A program made the position numbers and the translations under genes. Positions 27,462 to 55,196 of a stretch of 64,000 bases of DNA are shown here, piece by piece. The stretch lies in assembly GCA_964187785.1 (NCBI GenBank), contig OZ076409.1, forward strand, positions 26,414,001 to 26,478,000, in the 5' to 3' direction. The notes under the pieces are model-generated. The model was not told where the DNA came from and did not search any database. It saw only the letters and a list, made by a program, of their open reading frames with translations. Each line of letters opens with the position of its first letter. Position 1 is the first letter of the stretch. Source of the stretch: Amphiscolops sp. MND2022. Lineage: Eukaryota.

Positions 27462-30400
27462 GGTTAAATTGGTAGTGAATACAAGTTCGCCATTAGAAGA
27501 GTCAGCCGGAGTGTATGATAATAAGGGTGTTTCAAATTTTACTAAACACGATGATATTTCGAATGACCGTGACGTACTTTGAATATTTTTCGAAAACATG
27601 CATTACAGATGTTCTTGGAAATGAGCAAACTATTGTAAAGAACTGGCTTCAGCTGACGCTTAAGTTACCGCCGATTTTTCAAACGGCTGCAGTGTAACGT
27701 CACACAAAGTGTTGCAAGCGAACAAGGAGAACAAAAATTCCGAATTGGAAGACCATCGGACTGGAGAGTACCAAACATCGTTGAAAGATTTTTTCCAACC
27801 AACCAAGTTCATTATTCACCGGCCAGACAATATACAAATCTTGACGTTTTCGCAAGAAGAGATGTGAAAAAGGGTATTCCGATGAACTTAGCTGGGTTGT
27901 TGGCTGATATTCAAACATCTGAAGAGTTGCCAGCGCATGCTCATGTATCTGTGTTCCAGCGAAAAAATGAACAATTGATGGTAGGGCCTTTGTCTTTCAT
28001 TAACCGTTCTCGCTGGCCAAACTCATTTCACACTATAAATCAAGAAGTGATGTCACTCAGGTCTCTTCGGACAAGGAAGGAGGGTGAAGAAATAGCTGAA
28101 GTATGGGCTGGAGTATTTTGGCAATTACAACGAAGAATGTTTGTGTCCACATATAGAACACCATTCAAGGGTGAAGATCTTTTGGAGTGTGTTGGCGATG
28201 CTCCGACCTTATACGGTCGCAAAATTGCCCGGAGGCTCTGGTCGAGAGAGGAGCTCAGTAACTCCATTATGTCCCCGGGGAAAGATTTGGAGTTCAGGGA
28301 GTATCCCCGCAATCCCATGACTCCAACGCGAAAGCTCTCTTCCATGGTTAATAGTTTCTTGGCGAGAATTGTTTTCCGGAAGTAAAAAGTTCTGCATGTA
28401 TCGTTGTAATTTGATGTTTTAACCATAGGTCGATGCATTGTTTGAAAATATGCACGCTATAGATGCTTATTCGAAAGTTTTTGTTTCGTTGACATTTTTT
28501 GTTTGCTCAGAGCGCGTTGAAGACAAGTTCCTTTCCGTTCCGGGATGCTAGATCAAGTCCCGCAACAGCGTCGACCATTTGGGAACGGAGCTGAAAAACC
28601 ATTCTAAGAATGTGAAGAAACAATCGATGCCACCGAGCACTGCGACAACAAGCTCAGCTATGATGTCTCCTGCGGAAGATGATGTCTCCTGAGTCGGTTA
28701 AACTGGTAGTGAACACATGTGCGCCATTGGAAGAGTCCACCGGAGTGTATGTTCATATGAGTGTTTTAAATTTTACTAAACACGATGATATTTCGAATGA
28801 CCGTGACGTACTTTGAATATTTTTCGAAAACATGCATTACAGATGTTCTTGGAAATGAGCAAAACTATTGTAAAGAACTGGCTTTAGCTGACGCTTAAGT
28901 TACCGCAGAACTATTGAACGGCTGCAGTGTAACGTCACACAAAGAGTTGCAAGCGAACAAGGACAACAAAAATTCCGAATTGGAAGACCATCTGACTGAA
29001 GAGTACCAAATATCGTTGAAAGATTTTTTCCAACCGATCAAGTTCATTATTGACCGGCCAGACGTTATACAAGTCTTGACGTTTTCGCAAGAAGAGATGT
29101 GGAAAAAGGTATCGGAATGAACTTAGCTGGGTTGTTGGCTAATATTCCAACATCTGAAGAGTTGCCAGCGGATGCTCATGTATCTCTGTTCCAGCGAAAA
29201 AAAAGAACAATTGATGGTAGGGCCTTTGTCTTTCGTTGACCATTCTCGCTGGCCAAACTCATTTCACACTATAATTCAAGAAGTGATGTCACTCAGGTCT
29301 CTTCGGACAAGGACGGAGGGTGAAAAAATAACTGAAGTATGGGCTGGAATATTTTGGCAATTACAACGAAGAATGTTTGTGTCCACATATAGAACACCAT
29401 TCAAAGGTGAAGATCTTTTGGAGTGTGTTGGCGATGCTCCGACCTTATACGGTCGCAAAATTGCCCGGAGGCTCTGGTCGAGAGAGGAGCTCAGTAACTC
29501 CATTATGTCCCCGGGGAAAAATTTGGAGTTCAGGGAGTATCCCCGCAGTCCCATGACTCCAACGCGGAAGCTCTCTTCCATGGTTAATAGTTTCATGGCG
29601 AGAATTGATTTGCGGAAGTAAAAAGTTCTGCATGTATCGTTGTAATTTGATGTTTTAACCTTAGGTCGATGCATTGTTTGAAAATATGCACGCTATAGAT
29701 GCTTGTTCGAAAGTTTTTGTTTCGTTGATAATTTTTGTTTGCTCAGAGCGCGTTGAACACAAGTTCCTTTCCGTTCCGGGATGCTAGATCAAGTCCCGCA
29801 ACAGCGTCGATCATTTGAGAACGGAGCTGAAAAACCAATCTAAGAAACAATCGATGCCACCGAGCATTGCGACAACAAGCTCGGCTATGATGTCTCCTGC
29901 GGAAGATGATGTCTCCTGAGTCGGTTAAACTGGTAGTGAACACATGTGCGCCATTGGAAGAGTCCACCGGAGTGTATGTTCATATGAGTGTTTCATATTT
30001 TATTAAACATGATGATATTTTGAATGAACGTGACGTACTTTGAATATTTTTTGAAAACATGCATTACAGATGTTTTTGAAATGAGCAAAAATTATTGTAA
30101 AGGACTGGCTTTAGCTGACGCTTAAGTTACCGCAGAACTATTGAACGGCTGCAGTGTAACGTCACACAAAGAGTTGCAAGCGAACAAGGACAACAAAAAT
30201 TCCGAATTGGAAGACCATCTGACTGAAGAGTACCAAATATCGTTGAAAGATTTTTTCCAACCGATCAAGTTCATTATTGACCGGCCAGACGTTATACAAG
30301 TCTTGACGTTTTCGCATGAAGAGATGTGGAAAAAGGTACCGGAATGAACTTAGCTGGGTTGTTGGCTAATATTCCAACATCTGAAGAGTTGTCAGTGGAT

Positions 30401-34832: not shown

Positions 34833-35830
34833 CCGAAAACTTGGATTTGCAGTGTTCAGTGTGCCAATGACGTTATTTGCTGCCTTCAATTTTAAAAATA
34901 ACTCGACTTGAAACTTCTAATAAAATTACATTTTCGTATCATGAAAATCGAAGTTCGAGTAAGATACTGTTTGGGCGTAATGAGCGTTATGTTTTTACTT
35001 CAAAACTGGTTGTGCTCAAGCAATCTAGTCGCAGTGTTTCCACCGCCCGCACTTCTCAACAAAAGAGTTTCACAGTGATTGCAAAAATTCGGTCTACATT
35101 AGAAGGCTTGTAGTACAACACTGGCGGTGCTGTGGTCTGAACAACTAGAATATGATCACAGTTAACGGATATTTCTTACAATCCTAAGAAGGTTATAACG
35201 TGTGAGTCGTCCTTTGCTACATGAGATGTTATGAAAGCAGTGTCTTTGTTTCAAGGTAACTTTATCGATTAATTTATGTTGTATATTTTTGGTAAAGTTT
35301 ATAGCAAGAGAAGAATCAAAAGTGGTTAAATTGGTAGTGAATACAAGTTCGCCATTAGAAGAGTCAGCCGGAGTGTATGATAATAAGGGTGTTTCAAATT
35401 TTACTAAACACGATGATATTTCGAATGACCGTGACGTACTTTGAATATTTTTCGAAAACATGCATTACAGATGTTCTTGGAAATGAGCAAACTATTGTAA
35501 AGAACTGGCTTCAGCTGACGCTTAAGTTACCGCCGATTTTTCAAACGGCTGCAGTGTAACGTCACACAAAGTGTTGCAAGCGAACAAGGAGAACAAAAAT
35601 TCCGAATTGGAAGACCATCGGACTGGAGAGTACCAAACATCGTTGAAAGATTTTTTCCAACCAACCAAGTTCATTATTCACCGGCCAGACAATATACAAA
35701 TCTTGACGTTTTCGCAAGAAGAGATGTGAAAAAGGGTATTCCGATGAACTTAGCTGGGTTGTTGGCTGATATTCAAACATCTGAAGAGTTGCCAGCGCAT
35801 GCTCATGTATCTGTGTTCCAGCGAAAAAAT

Positions 35831-35851
35831 CATTACAAGACACAACTTTCA
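35831..35851 (+). repeat. Left TIR CATTACAAGACACAACTTTCA
   Basis: Exact reverse complement of 55174-55194. Confidence 0.97.
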
Positions 35852-36723
35852 GAGTGCGCGTAAATATACGTGTCTAAAATGCCTAAGTTTTCCTTATAAG
35901 CCAATATGCATTGAAGTATTGGTATTACTGATACATTTTTCAGTTGTTAATACATTACAAATGTATTCAGTTTCCTTAGATTTGATAATTATCAGATTCC
36001 TTATAATTCGTATACAAATGCCTCAAAATGTTTCCCCCCACGTTATAAGTAATCCTAGTACTCAAAACAAGTAATGTTGATACTTTGTATTATAAATCCT
36101 AATACGCTTAAAACTTGTTGAAAATAGGCTTCCTTATACAACTTGTGAGTATTCTTAGATTTCCTGATTTGAATTATAGTATCCATTGCAATATTATTCT
36201 GGTATTATTACAGCCAATGACATATACTGAATCAAATCTCTGTTGATATCTTATTCAATAAAGTGCAAATCCTGAACATTTCTGTATTTGAACCATTTAT
36301 TTGGGCGAATCGGCTGATATCTCATTCAATAAACTGCAAACCTTGAAGAAATCGTATTGTAAATGCCAGGGAATTGGAAATCTTAAACAATTTCGAATTT
36401 GAACAAGGCCATTGCCATGAACATCAATTTTCTCGGCGAGAGTTGGGATCTTCTCAAATCTTGATAAATCAAAGTTACTTCTTATTGGTGTTGATGATTT
36501 TAAATTCTATTTAAATTTAAATATTTGAATACAATTTAAATTCTAGAGCCATGGTATCAAAGAGGTCCCTGATTCAATTGAACAATCCTAGACAACTGAA
36601 AAGACCAAAGAACAAAGACAAAAGATTTTTTAACAAGTGAGCAAAGACAACAGATTTCAACAATAATCAAAATACAACAAAAGTTCAATGTTTTTCATCC
36701 AACAGTTGTGTCTTTTCGTTCAA

Positions 36724-39441
36724 TCAGTTGAACATTTTCCATGCTGCAGGATCGCCATAGTCAAACAGAACCTGGGTGAAAGGGGGAAGGTCTCTGAGTG
36801 CAACCAGTGCCACGTTTCTAGGCTTTTGAGGGAGTTTTCTGCAAACTACTTCCCCCAAGCGGGCTGTGCACTGCTTATTCCTGAGCCTTGAGTGATTGCA
36901 TAGTCTTCCAAGGCACAAATTTCGGGGATGGTGAGGACAGTCCTCATTGGATGCATCGACAAGACGCCTAATGTCTGTTGAAACTTCAATTATATAGGAC
37001 ATGTCACGGCCTGTTCTTGCAGCGTACGAGGCTGCATCCTTTTCGTCAACGAGACAACCATGATAGTCGCAAATGACATCGCCCTTTTTAAACGGCTTCA
37101 GTGTCATCACGCCACGACCCATGTCAGGATATGTGACACAGGTGATCCCGTCCCACGTCTGTGTGTCCTCACGGTGTAAAAAGTCGTATTGCCAACCCTC
37201 GTTGTTTGAGACACTGCTCTTGTACTCCAAGTTCGAATTGAAGGGTGCACCTCGAGGTTTTTGGGCGCTTTTTCCTTCCCGGTAGTCCAATAGAGTTTTA
37301 TGTAGCTTGGATTTGATTTTCCCGTCTTGCCATGACCCAACCTTGCACGTGTTCCACCCTTGTCGGAATGCATGGTCAAAGAAATTGGCATAGTCCGTTT
37401 CGGGATTTGCTTTGATGCGAAACTCATCGGCAAAGGCTTCAACCTGCGTGGAGAAGCGTTCAGTCCTTAGCGTCTGCAATCGTTTAGTGACAAGGTTTGT
37501 CAAATCCTCGAAGTTGACAGCTCTTCCAATTGAATTGTACAACAGATTGGAGACATGCTGCACTGACGGAAAGAGTTCATCCGGCTTGTAAGTTGAAGGT
37601 GTTTTCAGCCTGACGATACGTTTGAGGGCGAAATTCTCATCTCTGCAGTTGTGCCTCAGCTGTAATAAGCAAGAAATGAACAAATTAGACGTAGAGAAAA
37701 TAGATCAAAATTATATTATGTTTTGTTATCTTCCAAGTGTCACCAAATTCCTTAAACAAATATTCAAAGACCCTAAATGTTGCGTGAAAGAGTTTTGGTG
37801 AAAATGGTAGAATAATAGTTTTCGAACACAGAGGAACGATGTTCGAAACTGCCACGAAACGTAAACTATTCCATCATTTTGAAATTTAGTCTAAAATTTC
37901 TCTAAAAACAATAAACAATCCAAACAAATTCCAAAAACAATTTTTTGGCTATTTCATATGTCCCTTTCATATTGCATGAATTCTTAGACTCACTTTGACC
38001 ATCTCTTTCTTTGACTTATCTCGGAAGTTGATAATGGTGTTTCCGGTAGAATTGAAGAAGAAAGGCTCTGTCCAAACCAGCTTCTCACTTCCCTGAAATC
38101 GTGTTTGCATCTGAGGTACTCCAATCTTTGGTTTGAAATTCGGACGTACGTCTGAGTAATAGACTTGCAGGCCCCTTCCCACTATCCAAGAGATTGTGTG
38201 CGATCTGTAAAACGAATTTTGTGACTAGGAAACTAATATTTAGGGAAGTATTTTGACGCTGCTTATTTTTTTGAACTAACTGTTTTCACTGAAGTATTCC
38301 AAGACATTTTTCACGTAAACACTTTTTTTTTCACAGAAATGTTCCATGCAACTAATTTCGAACAATTTTCCACCCACCTGAAACCACCAGGGGTCCTCGT
38401 GTTCGCGCAGGTTAAGGTCACTGTCCCTCGAGTATCCGCCTTGGCTTGAAGTTCCGGGATTGTCTGCGCAAACAAATTCACTGTGAAGGTTTCTAGTTCA
38501 GCTGTTGAACATCTTGGTTCTGCGAACTCCATCAGGTAAACAATTATCAAATTGTGTAACGTCTTCCTGTCAGTGAAGGAGAGGCGAGATGAAAACTCGA
38601 ACTGTTCCACTAAATCTCCCATGAGATCTTCGCATGCATCGGCTGGAAACGCTCGATTCTGGACATAAGCAACATTGATGCTCCTAACGAAACTCTCTGC
38701 ATTGACTTTTTGTCGTTTCGACGCACGTGCTAACTCGTCGTTTTCTTCCTCATTCTGGCACGAATTTTTTCGTTTCCTCCGAACTTCGGAAAGTACTTGT
38801 TGAACCGGATTGCTCTCTGGAGCAGGTTGGAACCGGAATCGAGTTGAAGTGATGGCGTTCATTGTCAGCTCACTCGGCGTTGCAATAAAGTCACCTATCA
38901 TTGAATCGGTCAGCTGAGGAAGAGATGTACTTGGGTTGAGTGGCGTCGAAGTTGGAAGAATGAACTGGTAATCGAAAGAACCATTTACGGCCTGTGTATT
39001 AGCCCGAGGAGTAGCAGGCGGCGTTGGGAGAATTTCAGTCACCCCTCTCAGCAAGTGAGCAGAAGTGCTGAAAGCGGGAGTCTGAGAGAAGATAGGTTGA
39101 GATAAAGATTGTGGAAGCACCAACGATGTTAATTGAGGATCTCCATTCGCAGAAGCCTGTTCCTCTGCAGTTTTTGCAAAATTTGAGTCGACGGAGCTCA
39201 ATTTTTTCAATGCTGGTAATTGAGTCTCTCCATTCTCAGAAGCCAGTTCTTCCGCGGTTTTAGCAAAATTTGACTCGGTGGTGCTCATGATATTCGTTGA
39301 TGGTAAGTGAGAATCTACAACTTCAGGAGCCAGTATTTCTGCGTTTTCAGCGAAATTAGACTCAAGGGTGCTTATCATATTCGTTGATTGAACACAAGGA
39401 ACGAAGTTCTCAAGTTGCAGAACAGGAGTTTGTTGGCTCAT
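36724..39441 (-). CDS. SET-domain lysine methyltransferase (PR-Set7/SETD8-like), 3 exons, ~736 aa
   Basis: Exons 39441-38378, 38204-37994 and 37659-36724 join in frame through GT-AG sites (phases 2, 0). SET motifs MGRGVMTLKPFKKGDVICDYHG, LGRLCNHS, LVALRDL, VLFDYG; no post-SET cysteines. Confidence 0.9.
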
Positions 39442-39916
39442 GTCGGGATGTAGAGTTTTTTATCTCGAAGCAGCAGTTTTGAAATGCAAGTGTTCGACAG
39501 TTAACTGGAGATTGGAATGATATTTACAAGATTATCACTCAAAAAAACTAGTAGGCTCAATTCACACGTAATTGGCTCTAATAGCGCCTGAATTTGAGTC
39601 GACTCTTGATTTGCGTTGCAAGAGTGTTTGATAGAATGCTGAAGATTGGTGTGATAATTACAAGGATTATAACTCTCAATTACTGGTCGGCTCATTTTAC
39701 ACGCAATCGGCTGTAATCACGCCTGAAATTGAGTCGACTCTTGATTGATTACAACTACGCATACATATTACTTTAGTTGATTACAGAACGTTTTTAAACT
39801 GATCTGCTGACTTTTTTAGGCTGACTAAAAAAAACATTTATTCGTGGGGATGAAATAATTGAGGAATTTCAATTTTTGAGTTTTGAAAGTGTCAATTTGG
39901 GTTCCTTTAACAGGGG

Positions 39917-40861
39917 GACTAATTATGTGTCCATCGATTTTCTCAAATAGTAATCGAGACTAATATGTGCATCGACTCTCTTAAACAGTAGTCGAGACTT
40001 ATGTGTGCATCGATTTCCTTAAACAGTATTGCAGACTAATGAGTGCATCGAATTTCTTAAACAGTATTAAAACTAATGTGTGCATCGGTTTCCTTAAATA
40101 GCAATCGAGACTAATATGTGCATCGACTCTCCTAAACCGTAATCGAGACTAATATGTGCATCGACTTCCTTAAACAGTAATCGAGACTAATGTGGGCATC
40201 GACTTTCTTAAACAGTATTAAGACTTATGTGTGCATCGACTTTCTTAAACAGTCTTAAGACTTATGTGTGCATCGACTTTCCTAAACAGTCGTAAGACTT
40301 ATGTGTGCATCGACTTTCGTAAACAGTATTAAGACTAATGTGTGCATCGACTTTCCTAAACAGTATTGAAGACTAATATGTGCATCGACTCTCTTAAATA
40401 GTAATCGAGACAAATGTGTGCATCGACTTTCTCAAACAGTATTAAGACTAATGTGTGCATCGACTTTCTTAATCAGTATTGAAGACTAATGTGTGCATCG
40501 ACTTTCTTAAACAGTCTTAAGACAAATGTGTGCATCGACTTTCCTAAACAGTCATAAGACTTTTGTGTGCATCGACTTTCTTAAACAGTATTAGGACTAA
40601 TGTGTGCGCATCGACATTCTTAATCAGTATTGGAGACTAATGTGTGCATTGACATTCTTAAACAGTATTAGGACTAATTTGTGCATCGACATTCTTAAAC
40701 AGTATTAAGACTAATGTGTCCATCGACTTTCCTAAATAGGAATCGAGACTAATATGTGCATCGACTCTCTTAAACAGTAATCGAGACTAATGTGTGCATT
40801 GAATTACTTAAACGGTATTCGATAGTAATGTGTGCATCGATTTCCTTAAACAGTATTCCAG
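39917..40861 (+). repeat. 39/40-bp tandem array A (GACTAATGTGTGCATCGACTTTCTTAAACAGTATT(A/G)(A/G))
   Basis: About 24 contiguous degenerate units, no unique spacers. Confidence 0.95.
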
Positions 40862-41814
40862 ATGATTGTGTAAAGTGTAGAACAGGCATCAATTTTGTTC
40901 AACAGTACTCGACAGAACACAATTGATCCTACCAAAGTTTGCAATGCGCATTCAACTGTCATTGAAAATACCACAAGTAACGACAGTGCTGAAATTTGAT
41001 TGGTTGAAATGCTGAGATCTTCTGACCGCTAAGAAAAGGCATCGACTATTTTGTAGAAATGGCTTCAATTTACTTGAACTTTTTTCAAAATTGAGCGTGC
41101 GTCTGATTTATTTTACATTGACATTTCATTGTTTCAAATTCAGCTGCCTTCATTCATTAATTTCAAAAATTTAAACAAGCATCATCTCACTTTACTTCGC
41201 ACATCAACTTGTTTAACCTGTTGATCTGTTACTTCTCGGCTTTAGCTAACTAATCCTGTATTCTGTATCAATGTATTCTGTATGCTGTATCCTGTATCCT
41301 AACTAATAATGCCTGTATGCGATGGTAAGTTAAACAACTCTGCAATTTTGCTATATATGTATAGGGCTTTGTAAAAGATGACCTATCAAGCAATAGTCTA
41401 CGATGAAAAGATGGTACATCTTTTTACGATGAATTGAGTTATATATTACAAGGAAATATAGTGCAACGAACTGAGTTATGTCTATTTCACGCCTAGAGAT
41501 AATCAGAGTCTATTTACCAAATAGGCGTATAACTAACTAATCTGCCTTTTCAGCACAAATTTGCATGTAATTATTGCTTATCGCAAAAGCTTGGATCCTT
41601 CTATTTTTTCTGTTGTAACGAGAAACCTTGAATAATATAACAATTTTTCGACAATGTAAATAAACCCTTTTAACAGAATTTCTATTTTTTGGTTCAATCT
41701 TATTCAGTCTTGTATCTTTATATCCACAATTTTTATACTACAATTATTTCATGAAGTTTTGGATCTTTTCTGTTAGTTACAACCCCACCCACAGATTCAA
41801 TACCCCAATAACTG

Positions 41815-42610
41815 GCCAAAAAAGTTTTATACGGGAGAGCACAAAAATCGAAGCCAAAATAATGTTCCGTTGAAGCCTCCGGCATGTGTACATGTCAATT
41901 TTTGGAATCCTTTGATGAATTTAGAACCTCCCATTTCAGATTTAATAAAAAATTTTTCCCAGTGTTTCAGTTTTTCTCTATGACGTACATCAATATCTGG
42001 CCAAAAAAAAGCTTTTACGGAAAAGCACAAAAATCGAAGACAAAATAAAGTTCTGTGAAAGTCTCCTGCATGTGTGCATGTCAATTTTTTGAATCCCTAG
42101 ATGTATTTAGAACCTCCCATTTCAGATTTAATAAAAAATTTTCCCAGTGTTTCAGTTTTTCTCCATGACGTACATTAATAAGTGGCCAAAACAGTTTTTT
42201 ACGGAAAAGCACAAAAATCGAAGACAAAATAAAGTTCTGTGAAAGTCTCCTGCATGTGTGCATGTCAATTTTTTGAATCCCTAGATGTATTTAGAACCTC
42301 CCATTTCAGATTTAATAAAAAATTCTCCCAGTGTTTCAGTTTTTCTCTATGACGTACATCAATAAGTGGCCAAAACAGTTTTTTACGGAAAAGCACAAAA
42401 ATCGAAGACAAAATAAAGTTCTGTGAAAGTCTCCTGCATGTGTGCATGTCAATTTTTTGAATCCCTAGATGTATTTAGAACCTCCCATTTCAAATTAAAT
42501 TAAAAAACAAAAATCGAAGCCAAAATTTGTTCATTGAAACCTCCTGCATGTGTACTTGTCATTGTTTTGAACACCCAATCTGGTGTAATTTGGACCTCCC
42601 ATTTTGCATC
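41815..42610 (+). repeat. 184-bp tandem repeat (~4.5 units) upstream of the JmjC gene
   Basis: Period of 184 (e.g. ORFs at 42081 and 42265). Diverged inverted copies at ~44230-44560. Confidence 0.9.
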
Positions 42611-42748
42611 CAATAAATTTTTATTCTTTAGTTTTAGTCTCTTGTGGGGAAACAAATCCATTATTGGCAATTATTCAATTTTTTTTCAACGACTTCTTGA
42701 TGGGCCGCATGTGAGGTATTTTATGAATCGATTGTTGATGCTTTTAGA

Positions 42749-45700
42749 TTGTGGAGAGAGTTTCAAAAACGCCAAGACCCTGAAGCAGCACAGACGCCGG
42801 GGTAATGTGTCACATTGCGTTTTGAAAGCAGCTGAAGATTTGATAACGAAAAACAAATGGAAAACATGCATGTTTTGTGGCATGAAAGGCACTGCCAAGA
42901 GGGACAAAGATGGTGAAATGAAATTTTTCGAGTTTACCTGTCCCGCGGCAACTGCTCAGCATGCTTTAAACTACGACTGCAAATGGCAGCGAAAGCAAAT
43001 CGAAGATTCGAATCCACAGGCGATTATGAACAAGACGTACAAGGATTTTCAGGAAAGGGATTTCAAAGACCCAGACTCTTATGCTGATGAGTACTTGGCA
43101 GCAACTCGAGAAGTTGTCCAAGCGCTGACGCATGAAAAACAAGTTTTCAAATACACTCTAATGAGGAAAGAGGCATTCCTTCCTCTGAATGTGGACCACT
43201 ACAAAAAAGGACATAAAGCAGGTGCCAGCTGGGCTGACTATGGAAGCAACGTAGCCGCTCGGTCGTCCACGGGTAAAACGAATTATCAAATTACAAGAGA
43301 CTACACTGGCTCTCATTCTGTAAAGGAGCTGGATCCAACTCCACCGTTAGGAAGAATGTCTGGCACTCGTTAGTGTTGAATAAGTTTTTCAGTTCAATTC
43401 CCGACTGCATGTGAAATTAAATAGGACTTTCACTGCTTTTCTTGTTAGTAGTGTCTTCAGCGGCAACAACGACCACGAGAATGCCAAAGCCCGGAAGAAG
43501 GAGAGCAATATCTTGTTAGTACTTCGATGGTTATCTGATGTTCAACTTATTAAGATGTTCAATGCGTTTTTTACGTAATTGTTTTCAGGTTCGTTAACGA
43601 CCACGGGAACAACAACGCCTCGCAAAAGAAGAGCAACTTCTTGTTAGTAATTCGATGCTTCAGTGATGTGGTTTTGATTAGGTTTTAGATGCTTTTCTTG
43701 ACAATAGTGTTTTCAGCGCTGATAACGACCATGAGAATGCCGAAGCTTCGAAAGAGAAGAGCAACCTCTTGTTAGTATTTCGAAGTTTCACTGATGATGA
43801 TTTGATTAGTGTTTTCAACGTTTTGCTTGATTTATGTTTTTTCAGCCTCAAAAACAACAACGAAACTAACATCGCCCCAGAAGAGAAAGGCAACATTGTG
43901 TTAGTTTTTCGAAATTCGAAAGAAGTTGTATTGATTATGATTTAATGCTTTTCTTGAAAATGTTTTTAGCCCCGATAACGACAACAAGTATGACGACTAC
44001 AAAAATGACAAGAACGGCCGCGAATCCCAGCATATGCGGTCCCTTTGGGGAAGCTTCAACAAAAGATAATTGCGGTAAACCAAAACTTTTATTGCTAATG
44101 CTTTGAAAGAGTCTTTTGGGAAAACGTTTTCAAAAAACAAAAAAATGAAACTTCAAAAAATGTTGTAACAATAAGAGTACCAATGAATAGAACAACTCTA
44201 AGTTCAGTTAAGCAAAAAATAGCTTGATTACTTGCAGGAGACTTCAAATGATAATAAGTTTAGCTTGTCCGTTTTTTTTTAGATTTTACTGAACAATTAT
44301 TGGAATACGGCATGAAAGAGAAACAGAAAAACCTGAAATTTTTTTCCTTCAAATTGAATTGGGAGGTTCTAAATTCTTTTCCGGATTTGAAAAGAAGAGC
44401 TTGTTTATTTGCAAGAGACTTCAAATGAACATAAGATTGGTTTCAATTTTTGTGCTTGTTCGCTTTTTTTTAGTTTCCAGAACAAGTTTTGGCGTACAGC
44501 ATGAACAAAAATCGAGAAACCTTTTTACCTTTAATTTTGAATTTTTACATTTAGTTTGAAATGGGATTTATTATTCAGCTTCAAAATATTAGGGATATAA
44601 AATAAAGTTATTAGATTTGTTAGTTTTTTGAAGTCTTATTGATGTTGAATTGAATAAGATTTTTACTGCCTTTCTTAACAAAATTGTTTTCAGCCCCGCT
44701 AACGGCCACTAATCTTCTTCGTACTGCTTCTCCTCCTCCTACACCTGGTCCTTCTCGTATGGATTCTCCGCCTCCAACACCTGGTCCTTCTCGTATGGCG
44801 TCTCCTCCTCCTCCTCCTCCTCCTCCTACACCTGGTGCTTCTTCTTCTATGGCGTCTCCCCCTCCTACACCTGCTCCGTCTCGTTTGGACTCTCTTTTTC
44901 GTACACCTGGTCCTCCTCTTGCTCCGTCTTCTCGTCCTACACTCTTTCCTCCTCTACCTCCCCTCTTTCAGAAGGCTAAAGCAAGGAAGCGGAGTCCACG
45001 AAAATCCCTGACTCCAAAGAAACGTACGTATTATTTTTCCACTTTATATCCGGGGAAATGTACTAGGTATTTTAAATATTTCCTAAAATTTTTGTTTTGG
45101 AAATGATAGTCTGTGTTGACATTTGTTTTTGTGCTAAGGTGCCGTTCCTCCTACCGGCGGGCCCATTACTCCTGCAAAAAAGCGGAATCCAAGAAAATCG
45201 CCGACCCCGAGACGAACTCTTCCAACACAATCTTCTTGCAGCTATGATCGTACGTGGTTTTTTAAAAAATCTATAAACATTTAAGGACATTTTATAGGCA
45301 ATTATTTTTAAAAAATGTAAGCCTTTATTTTCCTAAACAACTGAATATTAAACATTGGCAATTGAAAAGTTGATTTCTTGTAGTGTCCTATCTTTTGATT
45401 TCGTGTGTTTTCAGCGATCAATTCAATTGACCCTGATGGCTACCCAACGTTTAGCGACGCCACAGAACTGCGCCAACTGGTGGAATGGTTGCCGATGGGC
45501 AAAGAGGGCATAGACTACTTGCAATACAAAGCCGAATTCTTTGATCAAAACTCAGCGCTTTTGAAAACGGCTCTAAAAGGAATTGTGAAGAAGCCGATGT
45601 TGATAGTTGATGCTCTCAGACTGAAGGGCTTCTCACACAAATTTGCAGCTGGAGACCTCAAACTTACCGATGAACGTTTATTCAGAGCAGTATTAGCGAA

Positions 45701-47089
45701 AGAAGATCCAAAAATGACAGTAAACTGCAGTTGGCTAAAGGGAGTAAGAAACTTTTGATTATTTTCTCAAATGAATGCTTAACCAACGTAGCGGTTGATT
45801 AGAAATCCTGAAAAATGACACATCTAAAGAAACTTGATACATTTATCATGTATAAATAGAGAAAAATGTATCAGTAATACACATTCTTCAAAGCACTTTG
45901 GCCTATAAGAAAACCTTATACACTTTAGACACTGAGCGTGAATTATCACTGTCAACAAGTTTCCAAGTCAATGTAGGATGAAATATCATCGGCAATAATT
46001 CTCCAGCCTTTTTTGTTAGAGTTATATTTCACTATTACATCTTTGTTAATTTTTCAGCACGAGTTCGAAATTGAGACCATGCCTCTGAAAACCTATTTCC
46101 TCAAGTTCGATCTCTCCAGACCAATGAACATCATTGATCTGAACGCAACAACAAGCAACAGTCTGCAGTTCGAGCCTGCGAACTTTGTGAAAGAAATCTC
46201 CTTGGGACACAAATTGCAAATGAGACTCCCAAGAGATAAGAGCAGCGTCTGGAAGCTAAACTACGTCATCCTCAGTCAAGCTGGGTGTTTCGCTGACTGG
46301 CACGTGGACTTCAGTGGAACCTCTGTGTTCTACGTCCTCCTTGCCGGAGAAAAAGAGTTCGTTTTTGTGAACGAGACCGGCAAGCTTGGTGAAGGACTGG
46401 CCAGCTTTCAGTCATCTAGGACAACGACATCCGTTAATAGGTTCTTCGGAGGCAGAAGAGATCTTCAGGCCTACAGAATCACTTTGAAAGCCGGACAGGG
46501 CGTTTTAATCCCAGCAGGAACGCTCCACTTCGTGTCCACAATAGCGAACAGTGTGGCTGTAGGGACAAACTTCTTGACTTTTCAGGAATACCGTTAGTAT
46601 CTCATGTTGGCAAAAGTTTGAATAAAATTTTGAAAAAGGTGGCTCCAAACTTATGATCATAAGACAGTATTGATTATTTTTCTTTTATTACTTAATGTTC
46701 AATGAATATTTAAAAAAGTTTTCTTTCCAGCTGCAGCACTCAATGAATTCATGAAGGAGAGGATCAGGAAGGTCAGATATTGCAAATGTTTTCCCCATTT
46801 TTGTCACCTGTCTGCTGCCATGGTATCTGAGTTTGTCCGTCGATGCAAACAAGCGAAATTTAACAAGCAAGCATCCCCACACCCCATTAACGAAGAAGGA
46901 GAAATATTTTGGCAAATTTGGACTATACATGAAGGCTATTCCTCAATGCTACCCAATTCCATGCGTAACGGGATCCGAAGATCGTTCCGTGCAAGTTTGA
47001 GTGAAGTCGCGAAATACAATACAGATATACCGCAGTACCCCAAACTCCCGGAGATAATCGAATACATGAACACCATGTGTGGCTTCTAA
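42749..47089 (+). CDS. JmjC histone-demethylase-like protein (KDM7/PHF8/KDM2-like) with Cys/His-rich N-terminus and basic/Pro-rich linker, ~860 aa; 5' end not determined
   Basis: In-phase exons ~42749-43368, 43461-43514, 43589-43642, 43717-43770, 43846-43899, 43970-44074, 44694-45023, 45139-45249, 45415-45719, 46058-46592, 46731-47089. JmjC motifs NYVILSQAGCFADWHVDFSGTSVFY..GEK..LIPAGTLHFVST..AVGTNFL (HxD..H intact), followed by FPHF. Confidence 0.9.
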
Positions 47090-47266
47090 ACCAGGGGTTT
47101 ATTTGAAAAAGAAGAAATAGTTCTTTGTTTTTGTTGAAACATATACCAGTAAGATTTAGATTTCATTAGAACTTGTTACTTTGCGACCTTTGCACAGGTT
47201 AATTCTGTTTGAAAACAATCTTTGTTTTTGTTGAAATTTGTACCAGTAAGATTTAAGGTTGAACTC

Positions 47267-48633
47267 CATCGACTTTTTTAAAAAGTATTCGAGACTAATA
47301 TGTGCATCGACTCTCTTAAACAGTAATCGAGACTAATATGTGCATCGACTTTCTTAACCACTATTCGAGACTAATGTGTCCATCGACTTTCTTAAACAGT
47401 CTTAAGATTAATGTGTGCATCGAGTTTCTTAAACAGTGTTGGAGACTAATGAGTGCATCGACTTTCTTAAACAGTATTAGGACTAATGTGTCCATCGACT
47501 TTCTTAAATAGTAATCGAGACTAATATGTGCATCGACTCTCCTAAACAGTAATCGAGACTAATGTGTGCATCGACTTTCTTAAACAGTATTGGAGACTAA
47601 TGAGTGCATCGACTTTCTTAAACAGTAGTAGGACTAATATGTGCATCGACTTTCTTAAACAGTAATCGAGACTAATGTGTGCATCGACTTTCTTAAACAG
47701 TATTGGAGACTAATGAGTGCATCGACTTTCTTAAACAGTAGTAGGACTAATATGTGCATCGACTTTCTTAAACAGTAATCGAGACTAATGTGTGCATCGA
47801 CTTTCTTAAACAGTATTGGAGACTAATGAGTGCATCGGCTTTCTTAACCACTATTCGAGACTAATGTGTCCATCGACTTTCTTAAACAGTCTTAAGATTA
47901 ATGTGTGCATCGAGTTTCTTAAACAGTGTTGGAGACTAATGAGTGCATCGACTTTCTTAAACAGTATTAGGACTAATGTGTCCATCGACTTTCTTAAATA
48001 GGAATCGAGACTAATATGTGCATCGACTCTCCTAAACAGTAATCGAGACTAATGTGTGCATCGACTTTCTTAAACAGTATTGGAGACTAATGAGTGCATC
48101 GACTTTCTTAAACAGTAGTAGGACTAATATGTGCATCGACTTTCTTAAACAGTATTGGAGACTAATGAGTGCATCGGCTTTCTTAACCACTATTCGAGAC
48201 TAATGTGTCCATCGACTTTCTTAAACAGTCTTAAGATTAATGTGTGCATCGAGTTTCTTAAACAGTGTTGGAGACTAATGAGTGCATCGACTTTCTTAAA
48301 CAGTATTAGGACTAATGTGTCCATCGACTTTCTTAAATAGGAATCGAGACTAATATGTGCATCGACTCTCCTAAACAGTAATCGAGACTAATGTGTGCAT
48401 CGACTTTCTTAAACAGTATTGGAGACTAATGAGTGCATCGACTTACTTAAACAGTAAGAGGACTAATATGTGCATCGACTTTCTTAAACAGTAATCGAGA
48501 CTAATGTGTGCATCGACTTTCTTAAACAGTATTAGGACTAATGTGTCCATCGACTTTCTTAAATAGTAATCGAGACTAATATGTGCATCGACTCTCCTAA
48601 ACAGTAATCGAGACTAATGTGTGCATCGACTTT
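47267..48633 (+). repeat. 39/40-bp tandem array B (same family and orientation as array A) with a 339-bp higher-order repeat
   Basis: About 34 units; identical ORFs at 47816 and 48155 show the 339-bp higher-order duplication. Confidence 0.95.
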
Positions 48634-48860
48634 GCCTCTGAAAACATATTTCCTGTGAGATTTCTTGTACCAGTAAGATTTAGATTTAATTAGAACTTGT
48701 TGCTTTGAGCCCTTTGCACCAGTCACTTCTGTTTGAAAACAATCTTTTGTGTGCAGATTTTTTTTCGATTATTTAAGACTAGGGTACATTATAGAAATAC
48801 AACGTCACAAAGGGAACAACATTTAAAACCAGCATTAATAACGAAATTAGGATGTAAAGT

Positions 48861-51800
48861 TCAAAACGATGACGTCTCATCTTTTTTTGTATGTCTTTTG
48901 CCAAATATCTTCTCGATGTCTTGTGTGAGGTTTGAGTAGTTTTGCTTCCGAAATTCTTTGATAAGGACAAACGGGCCTTTGGTAACTCCTTCAATTATTT
49001 CTTTGGCCTCGCATTGTCGTTTGAACAAGGGCTTCATGTCACGAATGGGCACTATTGGTATGTCATTTCCTGGTTTTATTTCATAGTTAGCTGGATCAAG
49101 CAAAGTACGTTTGTTCAAGCAATCAACAACAAACTTTACGTTCAAAAAAACAACTCCCGATTGTACATAACATCTTAACTTTAAAGCTCTTTCCTTTTTT
49201 TCGACAATTTTTTCACGTTTCTCCATTGGTCGGCCAACCCCTGGTTCTCCAGTTGCTATTCTAAGATCTGTTTCATTTTGTACTAAAACATAGCAAAACG
49301 GTAGATGGGAGTGCTTTTCAGTCAGTGTTTTCAGGGCATCTTGGGTCATTACCAGGCCGCCACATTCGAGAATCATCTTGTTCACTTGAACCTGCGTTAG
49401 GTTAGCTTTTCGAAAATCTCCAAATACGGTGAAACGTAGGCCTAGAAAAATCGAATCTTTCTCGCAAGGTGTATCGATTTGAATAGTCCTCGCTTTAATT
49501 GTTTTCCTACATATCCATAGGTAATCTATGTGGAAAGTTGGAATTGGCCGGAAGATACTGCGGAGCTGCATCATACACTCTTCAAAAGCGATTTGTTGCT
49601 TGCTGTGGATATAACATCGAAAAAACGACAAAACCAGATCTTGAAGCATGGGATCAACGTGAAGTAGTTTACCTCCCCCGCGCATTGTCTTTTGATGGTA
49701 GAATTGATGTGCTCGATGATTCGAGTGCTCCATTGCTTCGGTTAAGTGGTCCCAAGGTGACCGAATACAACCCGATTCGACCAATTTGGGAACAAGAAGG
49801 ATTTTCACTTTATATGGCGTAACTTCGCCAAAGAAAGCCATTGAGATATGATAATATGTCTCCGCCCAGAAATTGTATTCATCAATGAGTTTTTGAGGGA
49901 AACCGTTTTTCGAACCTCTGAGAATAATGTTCATATTGTTCAAGGATTGCCGCCATAGCTCTGCGGCATCGTACTTTGACATCAAATACCGTTTTGTTTT
50001 GTCTTCAAGTAATACTTCATGCTTGAAAAGTGTTTTGTGACACAGTTTAAGAGTTTCTAGGTTAGCCGGATGGCCCACTAAGTACTCGTTTTCTTTGAAG
50101 ACATTATCAAAAAGGTTGCTTTGTATTCCACTGTCGCTTCCAAATTCGTCCCGATGAGCAATCGCGAGCAGGGCTTCTTTTCCACTTAAAGACACAGAAT
50201 TGCAACTAGTTGGTCCGTTTTTGCTTGTATTGATATTAAATCTGAACCTGGGCTCCTTCACTCCTCTCTCGGTTAAATTGGATTCGAATAGGTTCAAAAC
50301 GGTGTAAATTGTTTTCCCGCGGGTCTCAATTAGTAGATTGCAAAACTTTTGCAAGTCATTCTCAACCATTCTTGTGATACCATGGCAAGTGTCAACGCAA
50401 ACTCTTCGGATGTCGTCAAGATAAACCAGGGAAGTTGACGGTAACACCTGCCAGGGTATATTCAGCGTTGTCCGTTTCTTCGTTTTGGGATCAACTGTCG
50501 TTGACAAAAAAGGTTGGAAAACTTTCTTTCCATCTTTAACGTCAAAACCAATTGACGACTTTTTGCCAACATAGATTGCGCATTTGGAGTCGTCTTCAAC
50601 GTTGTCACCATTAACCAATCGCATTACAAATGGCTGATCGCCGGACAACGTCAGTTTCACTTTGTAGTCCTCGACCAGCGTCTTTGTCTGCTGGTAAAGC
50701 CATCCACTCTTTTGAACTCCAACTTGTGTTGGGCCGAGGTTTTGTTCCATTGCAAATCTGCTATCATGACCTGCAAACATGTGCAAAACAGTCTCGTATC
50801 TGCATCTTTGGTACAAAAATATTTGATATAGCATGTTTTTGAAGAAAAGTTCTAGCGAATTGCTTATATTAATGCAAGTATTTACTTCTTTATTGAGGCT
50901 GGTAAACCAATGAGATTAATGTGAGAAAAGTTTCTTGATATTTTTTAAAAGATTTTCCGGGACAAAATTTGAGAAAGTTACAAACAGCTGATTTCGAGCT
51001 AATTCGGGACTTATTTCCGTTTTTCCAATTTTTTACCGTTTAATGCACAATTTCCTTCGCAAGTGTATGGTCAATTAACTCACATAATTCAAACGAATCT
51101 ATAGATCTTTTTCATATTCAAAATATATCAACAGTTTTCGAATCAGTTTAGTTGAATATAAAGCATCGACTGCGGTTCTACAGTTCGTTTGAAAAACAAA
51201 AAGGACTCGTTTAAAACAACAAATGTTGTTCACAACTGTATTCACATATGTAAAAACTTGAGATAGACAATAGATTTATCCACTACATTAAAAGCGCTTG
51301 AAAACATTCCATTATAGTTTGTTAATATTGCTACGCAACTCGTTTTCAGTTTAACATCTTTGCTTAGTTTAAACCATTGATTTTCTTGAACACTTTAGTT
51401 GAATAGAAAGTATTCATTTTTCCTAACAACGTTCAATCACTTTTGCACAAACCTTTGAAGGAAGCAAATGTGAAACATGCATCTGAAGATTGTGGACTGA
51501 TTTTCCCTTTTGTATCAAGAAATCGGAAAACCATTCTCGTACACTCCGAGTTCCCAATTTCAACCCCGTCACCCCAAAGATCAACTGCAACACCTTCTAA
51601 CGATTCAATTCCCGTCAGAAGGTAGTGAGAGGTTCTCACTAAGGTAATCAAATCGGCTCTAAAACCTGAGGTCTTCTCCGGTTGGAATATGTTGTAATAA
51701 AAGCAATGTAGAGGATTTGACAATTTGTTTAATGTTGTAACACTGGGAACTAACTGATCATTTCTTATGCCCTGTAAGTCAAATAAAGTCTTGAGATAAC

Positions 51801-52497
51801 CGACCAAATCAACAACATTACCAGTTTTCTTGATCAAATACAAATGCTCCATGAATTGATGGGTGTATCTCGAAGGGAACAGTGCTTTCATGATTTGTTT
51901 CAAATAATTAGGCCGTTGTACAAGTTTTTTTTCGGTAGCAATATAGGCTTTATTTTTCAAATGTTGAATCAAACTCCCAATTTCCAAATCTCGATTGTTC
52001 ATTTGATTCAACACATCACTCCAGAAATGATTGCTACTAGTACAAAAAGCGGGCTCGTGTAAATCCGAATTTTTTGCTATTGGTGGTTCTCGATTCTCCA
52101 GTTTCCGTAAGAATTTGCTAATTTCCGAGTTGTTTTCTACTGGCTTTCCGTCTGGAATGAATTCTGGGCCGAAGAAGTGTGCAACAAAGCGTCGGCGACG
52201 ATCTGTCCACGATAGGCCAGTGAATCCTTTAAAGACAAGCAAGAGTGCAATTTTGAATACCACAGCATTGTATTTTGCTCGTCTACCTGTCTCATTGCGC
52301 GTTGCACTGATGAAAACATCGGTGAATTGAACGTTTGTGCCATTCAAGAGACAAGTGATTGCTGGTTTCACTTTCCTTTGCTTGTCATTTATTGTTTCTT
52401 CTGCTAAGTAGTCGAATAACGATAAATCAACATACAGGCCTTCTGGCAAATTGATTAGGTGTTTTTTCAGAATTATCTCCTCATTGCAATAACTCAT
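48861..52497 (-). CDS. RAG1/Transib/Chapaev-like DDE transposase with C-terminal BRCT domain, 2 exons, ~984 aa
   Basis: Exons 52497-51453 and 50770-48861 join in phase 1 (FKG|HDSRF). Motif order DLWGDG, LSGDQPF, CVDTCHG, VTPY..LVP, TEAMEHSNH parallels RAG1 D600, D708, DALH, TNY..HVP and E962. C-terminal IFLGLRFTVFG..MILECGGLV..KFVVDCL..LLDPANY is the BRCT pattern. Confidence 0.8.
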
Positions 52498-52839
52498 TGT
52501 AATACCGGGACCGCTTTTAAGGAATAGGATTTCGAAATAAATGGGAAAACGTTTACCAAAATTAGCAACATTCACATTTGAGGCTTACTACATTCTTATA
52601 CGCTTATCCGCGTTAACGCTTTCATCGAAAAGAGAAACAGGTGCCGTAGATTTACATTTGGTGTCAACGGACTCACATTGCAACATCATCAAAAATCTGA
52701 GTCTAACACCAGAACTGAATTGAGGCAAATTATGACTTGCGAAGACGCAATTTAAAAGCATTCAGAAACCGTAAATTTCATTTTCCACTCTTCGCTTTAC
52801 CTCGAATCAAATTGGTCAATCAATTTTGAACAATCAACA

Positions 52840-54421
52840 ATGCTTTTTGCCAATGTTTTCTTCCAGACTAAGCCAGTCGTTCAAGCTTTGGATCCTGACA
52901 CTCAAATCTGGGAGGAGGCTAAAATCGAAGGTTTTGAAGGCACCAATCATGTTCGTGTTAATTTTACGCGCTGGGGAAAAAACAAGGACCCTGTTCGGGT
53001 TCTTTTTTGTGACCCCCAAGTTCATCTTGAAAATTGGCCAGTCAGGAAAGCTCTTGAAGAAGTTCTATTTCCCAGACGACACAATATTGATTACAAACTG
53101 GATTACACTAAGGAAAAATTCGCAAAAGGCGATATAGTATATTTTGTTGGGTCGACTGCGCCATCGGTTGGTGATATTATGGAGCCTTGGGAGATGAAAC
53201 AAATGATCCAAGAAGCATCAGTTTTGAAATCTGGAACTGTGCTAATCAATGATAGGTTTAGAAAAACTTTGCTGATTTGCTCCAATGTGGAGAAGTTTTA
53301 TATTTCGTACAACCAGTTGAGGAACTCTGACTGGCAAAAAGAAGGAATAGCTGACGAAGAAGAAATGATACCAATCCCAGTTGCCAAAAAATTGAAAGTT
53401 GAAGTGAAAGCTGTAGTGAAAGAGAAACAGTCGAAGATCAACATTGGAGACATTTTGCGGGCATTGTGCGGATCTGACGAAACCGTTAGCCTGACACTTG
53501 TTCCCACTACGAACGGAATACTAGCAGCAGGATCACGTGTTGTAATAGACTTGTCACAGACGGGGGTTGTACGAAAGCTTTTTTTTGACCGCAGGGAGGC
53601 GCACGCGATGGCAGAAGTAACTTTAGACGGGAGTAAGAGATACATTGGACTGCCAGCCACAGAAGTTCGACTGTCAGTAGACCCCAATCAATCACTTAAG
53701 AAGCAACAGGAAATCAATTATATGAAATCCCCAGAACTCACAGTGAGGAACCCTAACTTGCACCCAGTTGATGAAGTTTTCACAGTGTTTTCCGCCATCA
53801 AACGGGAACTTTTCCTCTCTTACGACACAATCAGCCACACAGAAATAATATACAGTCCTGTGCCATTTTACATTAGGCAAGTTTTGGGCTGTGAATCGTC
53901 AAGAGATTCGGTAAGCATATGCTAATTGTCAAAGTAGTTAATAGCATCATTGACAACAAGTCTTTGAAAACACTGTGGAGTGTAATTATTGAACTTCCCA
54001 GGGCATTGAAAATCTTGAACAATTTTTTAATCCAGCGTTGCAACTCCAAGGGCTTTCATAACTTTCAGCAATTTTGTATCTGAAGACTATACATGAAACC
54101 TTCATCAAGCGTTTGTTTTATAATTGTATTTCATTAGTTTTCTTCCATTGGCAGAAATTCACTATCAACGAGGAGCGGGGATCGCATGGAAACAAAGTGT
54201 TTGATGAAATTCTCGGTAAGAAATGGGATCTCCTTGAAACCAGGCCGGATGCTGAGAAGTTTTTCAATCATGTCCTCTTGGGGGTGCGGTTCAAAGTAAA
54301 AACCAGTCTCGCTTTTGAAGCCCTCAAAATTCAAGTTCAAGGACACAGAGGAAACTACGAGGACTATGAAAACTATCGCGAGTTAATCTCGAAAAACACA
54401 AAAACCTCCTTGGCAGCTTGA
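52840..54421 (+). CDS. Accessory protein, ~445 aa, 2 exons, with N-terminal Tudor/chromo-barrel(MBT)-like domain
   Basis: Exons 52840-53910 and 54155-54421 join in phase 0 (TCG|GTAAGC, GCAG|AAA). N-terminus VQALDPDTQIWEEAKIEGFEGTNHVRVNFTRW resembles Royal-family EAxD..WYxAxI....vxvhFxxW. The gene call is firmer than the domain call. Confidence 0.7.
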
Positions 54422-55173
54422 TAACTTGTGCATTTTCAATTATTCGTTTCTGTTTTTTGATGTAAATTTTGGTTACTTTGATATTCGTTAGATCATATTA
54501 ACATTTACTTTTACCAATAAATAAATTCGAGGAATTAGATAGCTCTTGATTCGATTTTTGTCGTTGAATTATTTCAACTACTTCTGAGGAAAAATGCTAA
54601 GCTGGTAGAGAGTGAAATTTACAATGAGCAAGAGGAGGCATCGGAATTCTTAAACAATTTTACAGGACAAAGTGTATAACTTGTGATTTAAAAAACTTCT
54701 AATTGTGTATCAAAATTACTTTATTAAAATTACTGTGAATCAGCGAATTGCTGCAAGCGACTGCAAACGCATTTTCGTCAAAACCACAATAACATGCGTT
54801 TTTATTAGGATTACTAAAGATTAGTATAAGAAATCCTATTTGTGTATAATGAATCCTTTTTGTGTATAAGAAATACTGTTTGTCTATATGTTCTCCGCGG
54901 AAATAGTATAACTTATACTTGACACTAGTATAAGAAATCCTTATAATGGGGATATTTATGGATATTTATTAGAAATCCTAATAAGTCGCATTAGGTTTCC
55001 TGATAGTAGGTATATAAAATCCTCCGTTTTCACCAAATATTAAAAATCCTTAAATTTTCGAAAAAGTTAAAACATACAAATAGGTAATAATAATACAAAA
55101 AATAATACATTAGGGGCCAGTGAAAATTCCCTTGTGGAGCATTTAAGGATATTTAATAAACTTTTGAGGCTCG

Positions 55174-55194
55174 TGAAAGTTGTGTCTTGTAATG
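55174..55194 (-). repeat. Right TIR
   Basis: TGAAAGTTGTGTCTTGTAATG followed by the AT TSD. Confidence 0.97.
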
Positions 55195-55196
55195 AT

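Follow-up and report, generated by a model that had tools for sequence, protein, structure and literature searches.

The DNA analysed is a 64,000-nucleotide stretch of the genome of Amphiscolops sp. MND2022 (contig OZ076409.1 of assembly GCA_964187785.1, positions 26,414,001 to 26,478,000, forward strand), referred to as the window; coordinates given without a contig are window positions. It contains a complete transposon of 19,364 bp (35831..55194) that encodes a transposase and carries a SET-domain gene, a JmjC gene and a Tudor-like gene as cargo. The element is bounded by terminal inverted repeats (TIRs) that are perfect over 21 bp and open with CATTAC (35831..35851, plus strand, and 55174..55194, minus strand). 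Both ends are flanked by the dinucleotide AT (35829..35830 and 55195..55196), a 2-bp target-site duplication (TSD). Comparison of the window with itself revealed a duplicated block of 7.86 kb, whose second copy is broken between 35830 and 55195, whereas the other copy retains the empty, pre-insertion site with one AT (27967..27968). The two copies of this block (24212-32066 versus 32074-35830 plus 55195-59294) are 99.8-99.9% identical; the duplication is older than the insertion and is the source of the empty site.

Exact matches to the TIR 20-mer were found 109 times in forward and 114 times in reverse orientation in the host genome (G000, 1.07 Gb), compared with none for the reversed control. 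Inward-facing ends were paired using the first 100 of these 223 matches and the transposase positions, yielding 34 elements, of which 15 were long (about 19-22 kb) and 19 were short (272-3838 bp). Three loci with initially unpairable ends were excluded from these 34, two of which were resolved later. An exact 2-bp TSD was present in 33 of the 34 paired copies and a TSD of at least 3 bp in none; the single exception sits in a locally duplicated block. The 33 duplications comprised 14 different dinucleotides (TA in four cases), and two further copies, paired later, showed AC/AC and TA/TA. The insertion target thus shows little sequence preference, with a 2-bp duplication of variable sequence. 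The transposase regions of 13 other copies were 99.3-99.9% identical, two whole copies on other contigs matched the element over its full length at 99.8% and 99.7% identity, nine tested open reading frames (ORFs) being free of stop codons, and the short derivatives shared the ends of the element and carried fresh TSDs. The element is a recently amplified TIR DNA transposon with non-autonomous derivatives. An assembly artefact was ruled out because flanks and TSDs differ at 34 sites and an empty site exists. An earlier interpretation based on the letters of the window (the sequence-only reading) had pointed to transposase motifs at 48861-52497, CATTA termini, for which it gave no end coordinates, and a 2-bp TSD, all of which were borne out.

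The coding sequence of the transposase occupies exactly 48861-52497 on the minus strand (ATG at 52497, stop at 48861) and consists of two ORFs, corresponding to two exons. Exon 1 (51453..52497) encodes an N-terminal helical region and the first catalytic aspartate (D310, at 51570), and exon 2 (48861..50770) encodes D393 (50639), a DxxH motif (50393-50384), E693/E696 (49739/49730) and a C-terminal BRCT domain. Removal of one GT-AG intron of 682 nt (50771..51452) generates an open frame of 984 aa. The intron is a prediction from the GT and AG boundaries, the reading frame and intronless relatives in the same genome, which align across the junction and contain no counterpart of it. GT..AG and the length of 682 nt were retained in 14 near-identical loci of the 19 examined; two diverged loci had an intron of 645 nt, whose acceptor reads TG in one of them, and the remaining three yielded no match. 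The motifs follow in the order WGDG (D310), GxD (D350), SGD (D393), DxxH (475-478), TPYKxK and ExxExSNH (E693/E696), with a conserved acidic residue (D350) between the first and second aspartates. In alignment A2, counting only rows that have a residue at the respective position, conservation was 63/64 for D310, 78/79 for D393, 82/83 for H478, 78/79 for E693 and 79/80 for E696. The third catalytic motif of RAG1 is ExxE, and by analogy E696 was taken as the putative catalytic glutamate.

The cargo genes lie on either side of the transposase gene. The exon of the SET-domain gene (36724..37704, minus strand) encodes a predicted histone methyltransferase of the SETD8/KMT5A type (Pfam SET, E 5.7e-11) with RLxNHS and xDYG motifs; all 14 matches among PDB sequences were SETD8, the closest relative (best E 2.2e-10). 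Upstream of it, a low-complexity ORF of 382 aa from stop to stop (38311..39459, minus strand; no Pfam match) is possibly the 5' part of the same gene. The JmjC gene (plus strand), with exons at 45399-45758, 45977-46597 and 46706-47089 that are presumed to be linked, resembles KDM7/PHF8/KDM2 (Pfam JmjC, E 2.1e-6; PDB sequences of a KDM7 homolog, E 1.3e-16, and PHF8, 7e-15) and retains the HxD...H iron ligands as HVD plus a distal histidine, so that its product is a predicted histone demethylase. An ORF with a C2H2 zinc-finger-like motif (42504..43373, plus strand; weak Pfam zf-C2H2 match, E 0.024) is likely a 5' exon of the JmjC gene because two related families (F3 and F5, see below) have C2H2 motifs upstream of JmjC on the same strand. 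Three tandem arrays are internal to the element and situated between its genes: one of a 38-bp repeat in about 25 copies (39925..40862), one of a 184-bp repeat in 3.8 copies (41806..42507) and a second array of the same 38-bp repeat with about 36 units (47267..48633). The Tudor-like gene (52840..54421, plus strand), transcribed divergently, has exons at about 52840-53925 and within 54062-54421, both of which are covered by a single continuous ORF in family F5. A model of the F5 protein (mean predicted local distance difference test score (pLDDT) 64) contains three barrels with values of 85-95 that match Tudor, chromo-barrel and BAH domains with modest scores (Z 6-8.2), making the Tudor-like product a candidate methyl-lysine reader.

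Ratios of nonsynonymous to synonymous substitution rates (dN/dS) were determined by the Nei-Gojobori method against two diverged, decayed copies, with stop codons and windows of less than 70% identity dropped; these copies contained no equivalent of two of the ORFs. Values ranged from 0.10 to 0.33 across all 12 gene-by-copy comparisons, with 0.20-0.24 for the transposase (0.20-0.23 in exon 1), 0.14 for SET, 0.16 for JmjC, 0.10-0.26 for the exons of the Tudor-like gene and 0.31-0.33 for two linker ORFs (0.31 for the 382-aa ORF). The cargo genes are under purifying selection, and their passive capture or hitch-hiking was ruled out because dN/dS is low and the cargo is kept across families.

This last point came from four sister families of the host genome (F2-F5; the window family is F1), which are 33-37% identical in exon 2. 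A CATTAC start was found in F2 (three copies of 29.9-47.2 kb with nested inserts, TSD in 3/3), F3 (17.5 kb, TSD in 1/1) and F5 (17.1 kb, TSD in 1/2); the left end of F4 likewise opens with CATTAC, but no right end could be located for it. SET and JmjC homologues were present in all four families with rearranged gene order, homologues of the Tudor-like gene in F2, F4, F5 and, weakly, F3, and the JmjC HxD motif in F2, F4 and F5. A weak match to the Tudor-like ORF at locus L150 (E 3.7e-5) was not trusted. F3 carries a 187-bp array, similar in unit length to the 184-bp array of the window element. The 30-47-kb elements of F2 (L109-L130, e.g. G000:C9 at about 37.12-37.17 Mb) contain nested integrase-like pieces that, judging by motif, we take to be of the Gypsy type; these pieces have travelled with the element because the three copies are more than 99% identical over their shared length. 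In the F2 transposases P0009 and P0010 (L028 and L029), an expanding tandem repeat of 13 aa, whose copy number varies, stands between the core and the N-terminal domain.

Homologue searches with the transposase returned 36 proteins and 585 cluster representatives at E<=0.001; among the 36 proteins and the 150 representatives listed of the 585, none had an informative name or a transposase Pfam domain. The 35 family members compared were 25-39% identical to the window transposase. A FastTree phylogeny was calculated for 36 family members, with fragments and near-duplicates left out; it contains no outgroup and is mute on RAG1. No transposase or RAG1 match was obtained in Pfam for any of 32 members at E<=1 or of ten further members at E<=0.1, the window transposase itself giving a weak BRCT_2 match below the cut-off (E 3e-4). 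A search of PDB sequences with the family gave nothing relevant (E<=10), and all Atlas neighbours scored below 0.9. Outside the host genome, ten metagenome loci of 1.4-5.9 kb were found, whose length does not reach element ends or cargo. No relative was detected in viral contigs and prokaryotic genome contigs by pattern-based scans, which do not prove absence.

For structural comparison, a relative of the window transposase with 32% identity (P0027) was modelled from a 132-row alignment (pLDDT 91.5, predicted template modelling score 0.87). In Foldseek, the best matches of this model were RAG1 and HzTransib (E 1.5e-6 to 7e-6), followed by the P element (3e-4) and Hermes (5e-3). VIA-align gave Z 13.3-19.3 for RAG1, depending on its state (best root-mean-square deviation (rmsd) 3.7 over 379 aligned residues; in the wide search Z 17.6, rmsd 3.8, 400 aligned), 17.2 for BbRAG1L and 11.2-17.7 for HzTransib (HFC: Z 17.7, rmsd 4.3, 388 aligned, 13% identity), compared with 12.8 for the P element, 8.2 for ISCth4 and 7.8 for Hermes. 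The superposition covers RAG1 residues of about 479-1005, with sequence identities of 8-13% overall and 11-13% for RAG1 and HzTransib. In the model, the first aspartate (D206) is part of the first core strand, the second (D288) comes right behind a later strand and the glutamate (E574) belongs to a helix, a topology that appears RNase H-like, and residues 663-791 superpose on BRCT domains (Z up to 11.0). The modelling therefore supports a RAG1/Transib-like fold of the transposase, closer to these proteins than to P or hAT transposases, and the RAG1-type core postulated by the sequence-only reading is upheld at the level of a relative's model, with Z 17-19 on RAG1 and HzTransib.

CA termini are shared with animal EnSpm/CACTA, Mirage and Chapaev elements, and a 2-bp TSD is typical of animal EnSpm and Mirage. 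According to parts of Kojima 2025 (PMC12730594), elements of the CACTA-Mirage-Chapaev-Transib/RAG1 (CMCT) clade have CA..TG termini and duplicate 2-5 bp of target DNA, and all named lineages of the clade share two zinc motifs, C(2)C and H(3-4)H, with one another and with RAG1. The family shows conserved D/D/E residues with an RNase H fold (in the relative's model), CA..TG ends and a 2-bp TSD, and the histidine of its (D/C)xxH motif in the insertion (82/83 rows) probably corresponds to the third conserved histidine in the Figure 4 legend of that source. C(2)C after the second aspartate was absent from all 42 family rows spanning the second aspartate to the glutamate, and H(3-4)H before the catalytic glutamate was likewise found in 0/42, the region being occupied by TPYKxK, whereas host EnSpm transposases, used as a control, had both motifs in 6/6 cases. 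The family thus behaves as a CMCT/RAG-type transposase yet lacks the zinc feature stated for every named lineage.

The sequence-only reading had argued for a possible new transposon lineage on the grounds that a RAG1-type core combined with CATTA ends and a 2-bp TSD fits no superfamily that it could name. This argument is not supported as put forward, since the combination lies inside the known range of the CMCT clade and is not new by itself: PMC12730594 describes ESTA as RAG1-like by HHpred, with a TA TSD and CACCAC/CACTAC ends, and PlavakaB with CATCA ends and a 2-3-bp TSD, and bioRxiv 10.64898/2026.08.26.747230 reports a Transib whose TSD appears to be TA. The conclusion itself is supported on other grounds, because no named family was matched in Pfam, PDB sequences or the EnSpm profile, making a distinct lineage likely. 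What sets the lineage apart is the loss of the zinc motifs, the C-terminal BRCT domain, the giant size and the histone-modifier cargo, none of which had been part of the sequence-only reading. It is apparently an unnamed CMCT-related lineage of giant elements; superfamily rank has a fair chance of being appropriate.

Comparison with individual groups sharpens this placement. RAG1, RAG1L (ProtoRAG) and Transib share the predicted RNase H DDE core with helical insertion (about 400 residues), the motif order, CA..TG ends and short TIRs, whereas the elements described here differ in their 11-13% identity, the lack of zinc ligands, a 2-bp non-specific TSD (5 bp and GC-rich in those groups), the lack of a RAG2-like match, the C-terminal BRCT domain and a size of 17-47 kb with chromatin genes. 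ESTA, known here from portions of PMC12730594 and compared by description, has in common a RAG1-like transposase, CAYYAC-type ends, a 2-bp TSD and epigenetic-enzyme cargo, but it occurs in rust fungi, retains the zinc motifs, carries TET/JBP cargo and has a TA TSD (TA accounts for only 4/33 duplications here). Plavaka elements, in the same parts of that source, share CATCA-like ends and a 2-3-bp TSD in PlavakaB but keep the zinc motifs; no match to the Plavaka transposase Pfam family was seen in the members scanned, a search that had no Plavaka positive control. Giant Plavaka elements of red algae, as far as described in sections of bioRxiv 10.1101/2025.02.11.637652, are likewise 17.4-19.1 kb long with tandem arrays and three accessory genes that include SET and 2-oxoglutarate (2OG) oxygenase genes, but these encode an adenine methylase-SET and a ParB-oxygenase protein rather than SETD8-like, zinc-finger-KDM7-like JmjC and Tudor-like proteins. 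Host EnSpm elements also carry SET domains but showed no profile similarity to the family (hidden Markov model (HMM) against EnSpm ORFs, best E 0.77; hhalign probability 0.2%), and they matched both Transposase_21 (PF02992) and DUF1258, which were found in 0/32 and 0/10 family members.

Taken together, the element is probably an unnamed, zinc-less, BRCT-bearing CMCT-related transposon of 19.4 kb whose histone writer, eraser and reader cargo likely keeps its copies unsilenced. A stronger version, held more tentatively and at somewhat less than even confidence, sees in it a zinc-free, BRCT-fused RAG1/Transib relative of superfamily rank that rewrites the chromatin on its own copies, as a histone-level counterpart of VANC kept across families of about 35% identity. 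Mechanistically, the transposase would bind the TIRs and cut by RAG/Transib-type nick-and-hairpin chemistry with D310, D393 and E696, as the fold suggests; target DNA would be cut with a stagger of 2 nt and chosen with little regard to sequence, and the enzyme would presumably move the short non-autonomous copies in trans. By homology, the BRCT domain may join the transpososome to DNA or repair factors, the zinc-finger JmjC protein would bind the element, with the internal tandem arrays as candidate sites, and strip H3 of repressive dimethylation, the SETD8-like enzyme would place H4K20me1 (monomethylation of histone H4 at lysine 20), and the Tudor-like protein would read methyl marks.

Chromatin self-protection by the cargo is likely, as judged by homology, and its main rival is that the cargo serves to repair breaks or acts on the chromatin of target sites. 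Double-strand-break signalling makes use of SETD8 and H4K20 methylation as well as of tandem Tudor and BRCT domains. The selected SET, JmjC and Tudor-like genes might accordingly act broadly on host chromatin, by target opening, germ-line state or post-excision repair, rather than on silencing of the element itself, an alternative that is rather unlikely but serious and would suit insertions without sequence preference and arrays that differ among families. However, the C2H2 fingers encoded ahead of JmjC point to DNA binding at specific sequences, and VANC, the precedent for self-targeted anti-silencing, also has tandem repeats as targets that differ among related elements (parts of PMC5735166). 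VANDAL elements with VANC and HarbingerS, of which the latter provides a further precedent for SET cargo (through a citing paper), resemble the present element in their transposon-borne chromatin factors and, for VANC, in internal tandem arrays as likely targets, but their transposases are of the MULE (Mutator-like element) and Harbinger types, VANC acts on DNA methylation, and a writer-eraser-reader trio is not described for either in the passages covered. Capture of SET and 2OG-oxygenase genes is also mentioned for Helitrons in the sections considered of bioRxiv 10.1101/2025.02.11.637652.

A second alternative, that the family is a derived branch within a named CMCT lineage (Chapaev, Transib, ESTA, Lanisha or animal EnSpm/Plavaka) or an existing Repbase entry that lost its zinc ligands secondarily, is improbable without being negligible, and the chance that the family is already catalogued in Repbase is small but real. 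The termini are one or two bases off ESTA CACTAC/CACCAC and PlavakaB CATCA (PMC12730594, in part), and TSD length is labile in Transib, according to sections of bioRxiv 10.64898/2026.08.26.747230. Some Atlas neighbour clusters include a minority of RAG1_RNase_H/ZnH2 domains at scores of 0.82-0.87, which serve as leads only, and beyond the best 150 of the 585 profile matches the remaining 435 could bridge to zinc-bearing relatives. Against this stand the lack of Pfam transposase or RAG1 matches in 32 and ten members, the negligible profile similarity to host EnSpm and the absence of zinc motifs across members only 25-39% identical to the window transposase. No title or abstract was found that describes the lineage or CATTA ends with a TSD, in a literature search that did not cover Repbase Reports and most subscription papers.

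A specific sister relationship to RAG1/Transib that would inform the origin of V(D)J recombination, as the sequence-only reading had suggested, is very unlikely: RAG1 gave the top fold scores (Z up to 19.3), and an ExxE-type third motif and an acidic residue between the first two aspartates are present, but identity is 11-13%, HzTransib falls within the range of the RAG1 entries (17.7 versus 13.3-19.3), and a RAG1 best match is expected for any clade member because the structure matches listed hold no other CMCT member. In the TIRs of F2 and F5 (L126 and L185), CATT precedes ACAGTG, which equals the final six bases of the heptamer of the recombination signal sequence (RSS), shifted inward; this is probably chance because F1, F3 and F4 lack the string. 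ESTA, too, was first recognised by its similarity to RAG1 (PMC12730594, in part). The hallmarks of RAG1L given in parts of PMC10629977 (four zinc residues, a 5-bp GC-rich TSD, a RAG2L partner and a heptamer) were not found here: the four zinc-coordinating residues of ZnB, a domain regarded as ancestral in Transib/RAG1L in sections of PMC9435367, are absent from the family, the TSD is 2 bp in 33/34 copies, the terminus reads CATTACA instead of an RSS-like heptamer, and no kelch or RAG2-like match was found among 11 element ORFs in the Pfam scan, which excluded short exons. PF12940 (RAG1) was not matched in the family, nor was a RAG1/Transib sequence in PDB at E<=10, searches that had no Transib positive control; PF12940 and PF21787 (P-like) had no match in the host genome but none in the controls either. 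Special closeness to RAG1 was not shown, and the RAG-ancestry claim is unproven.

Several points weigh against the reading of the element as a CMCT-related transposon with self-protective cargo. The modelled protein is a relative at 32% identity rather than the transposase of the window itself, and clustering of the acidic triad was read from topology and superposition scores. Because the fold matches listed include no solved structure from CACTA, Chapaev, Mirage or Plavaka, they give no ranking of RAG1/Transib relative to these groups. The assignment to the CMCT clade draws on fold, motif order and termini, since searches of Pfam, PDB sequences and the host EnSpm profile did not tie the family to any named group by sequence. 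The Z-scores of the Tudor barrels are no higher than the level the tool calls 'common arrangement'. Among the sister families, one of the two F5 copies is without a TSD, the JmjC HxD motif is replaced by HIG in one F3 copy, one of the two F4 copies showed neither SET nor JmjC in the 40 kb examined, and F3 and F5 contain arrays of other kinds, the 38-bp arrays not having been observed there.

In the surroundings of the element, the insertion lies in a tandem array of units of about 1.23 kb (27462-32071 and 55195-64000), each with an ORF of 150-240 aa in which Pfam weakly recognises part of a SET domain (E 3e-4); this fragment is similar to the SET domains that host EnSpm elements carry, and the array is perhaps an amplified piece of EnSpm. 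The canonical EnSpm transposases of the host have intact C(2)C and H(3)H motifs. In L131, L138 and L144 (on C10, C11 and C9 of G000), their open frame also includes a SET domain at the N-terminus, confirmed by Pfam for L131 and L138; in L137, L142 and L145 the SET domain lies just upstream of the transposase frame. By motif, these domains are presumably SUV4-20-like, and they look like a second, independent capture of SET in this genome. The window further contains a 475-aa open frame (11550-12974, minus strand) that has no Pfam match and is unrelated to the element, a pair of 346-bp inverted repeats with 96.8% identity (6845-7816) that is typical of a foldback element or miniature inverted-repeat transposable element, and a perfect tandem duplication of 650 bp (20553-21852).

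If correct, this placement would add a deep branch to the transposase clade that yielded RAG1, and the zinc module regarded as the signature of this clade would be dispensable in a recently multiplied element, whose intact copies would permit a test of how a 2-bp and a 5-bp target stagger arise from one fold. The conserved set of SET, JmjC and Tudor-like genes makes it testable whether transposons carry erasers of their own repressive histone marks, and a histone demethylase targeted by sequence would, if confirmed, be a candidate part for epigenome editing.

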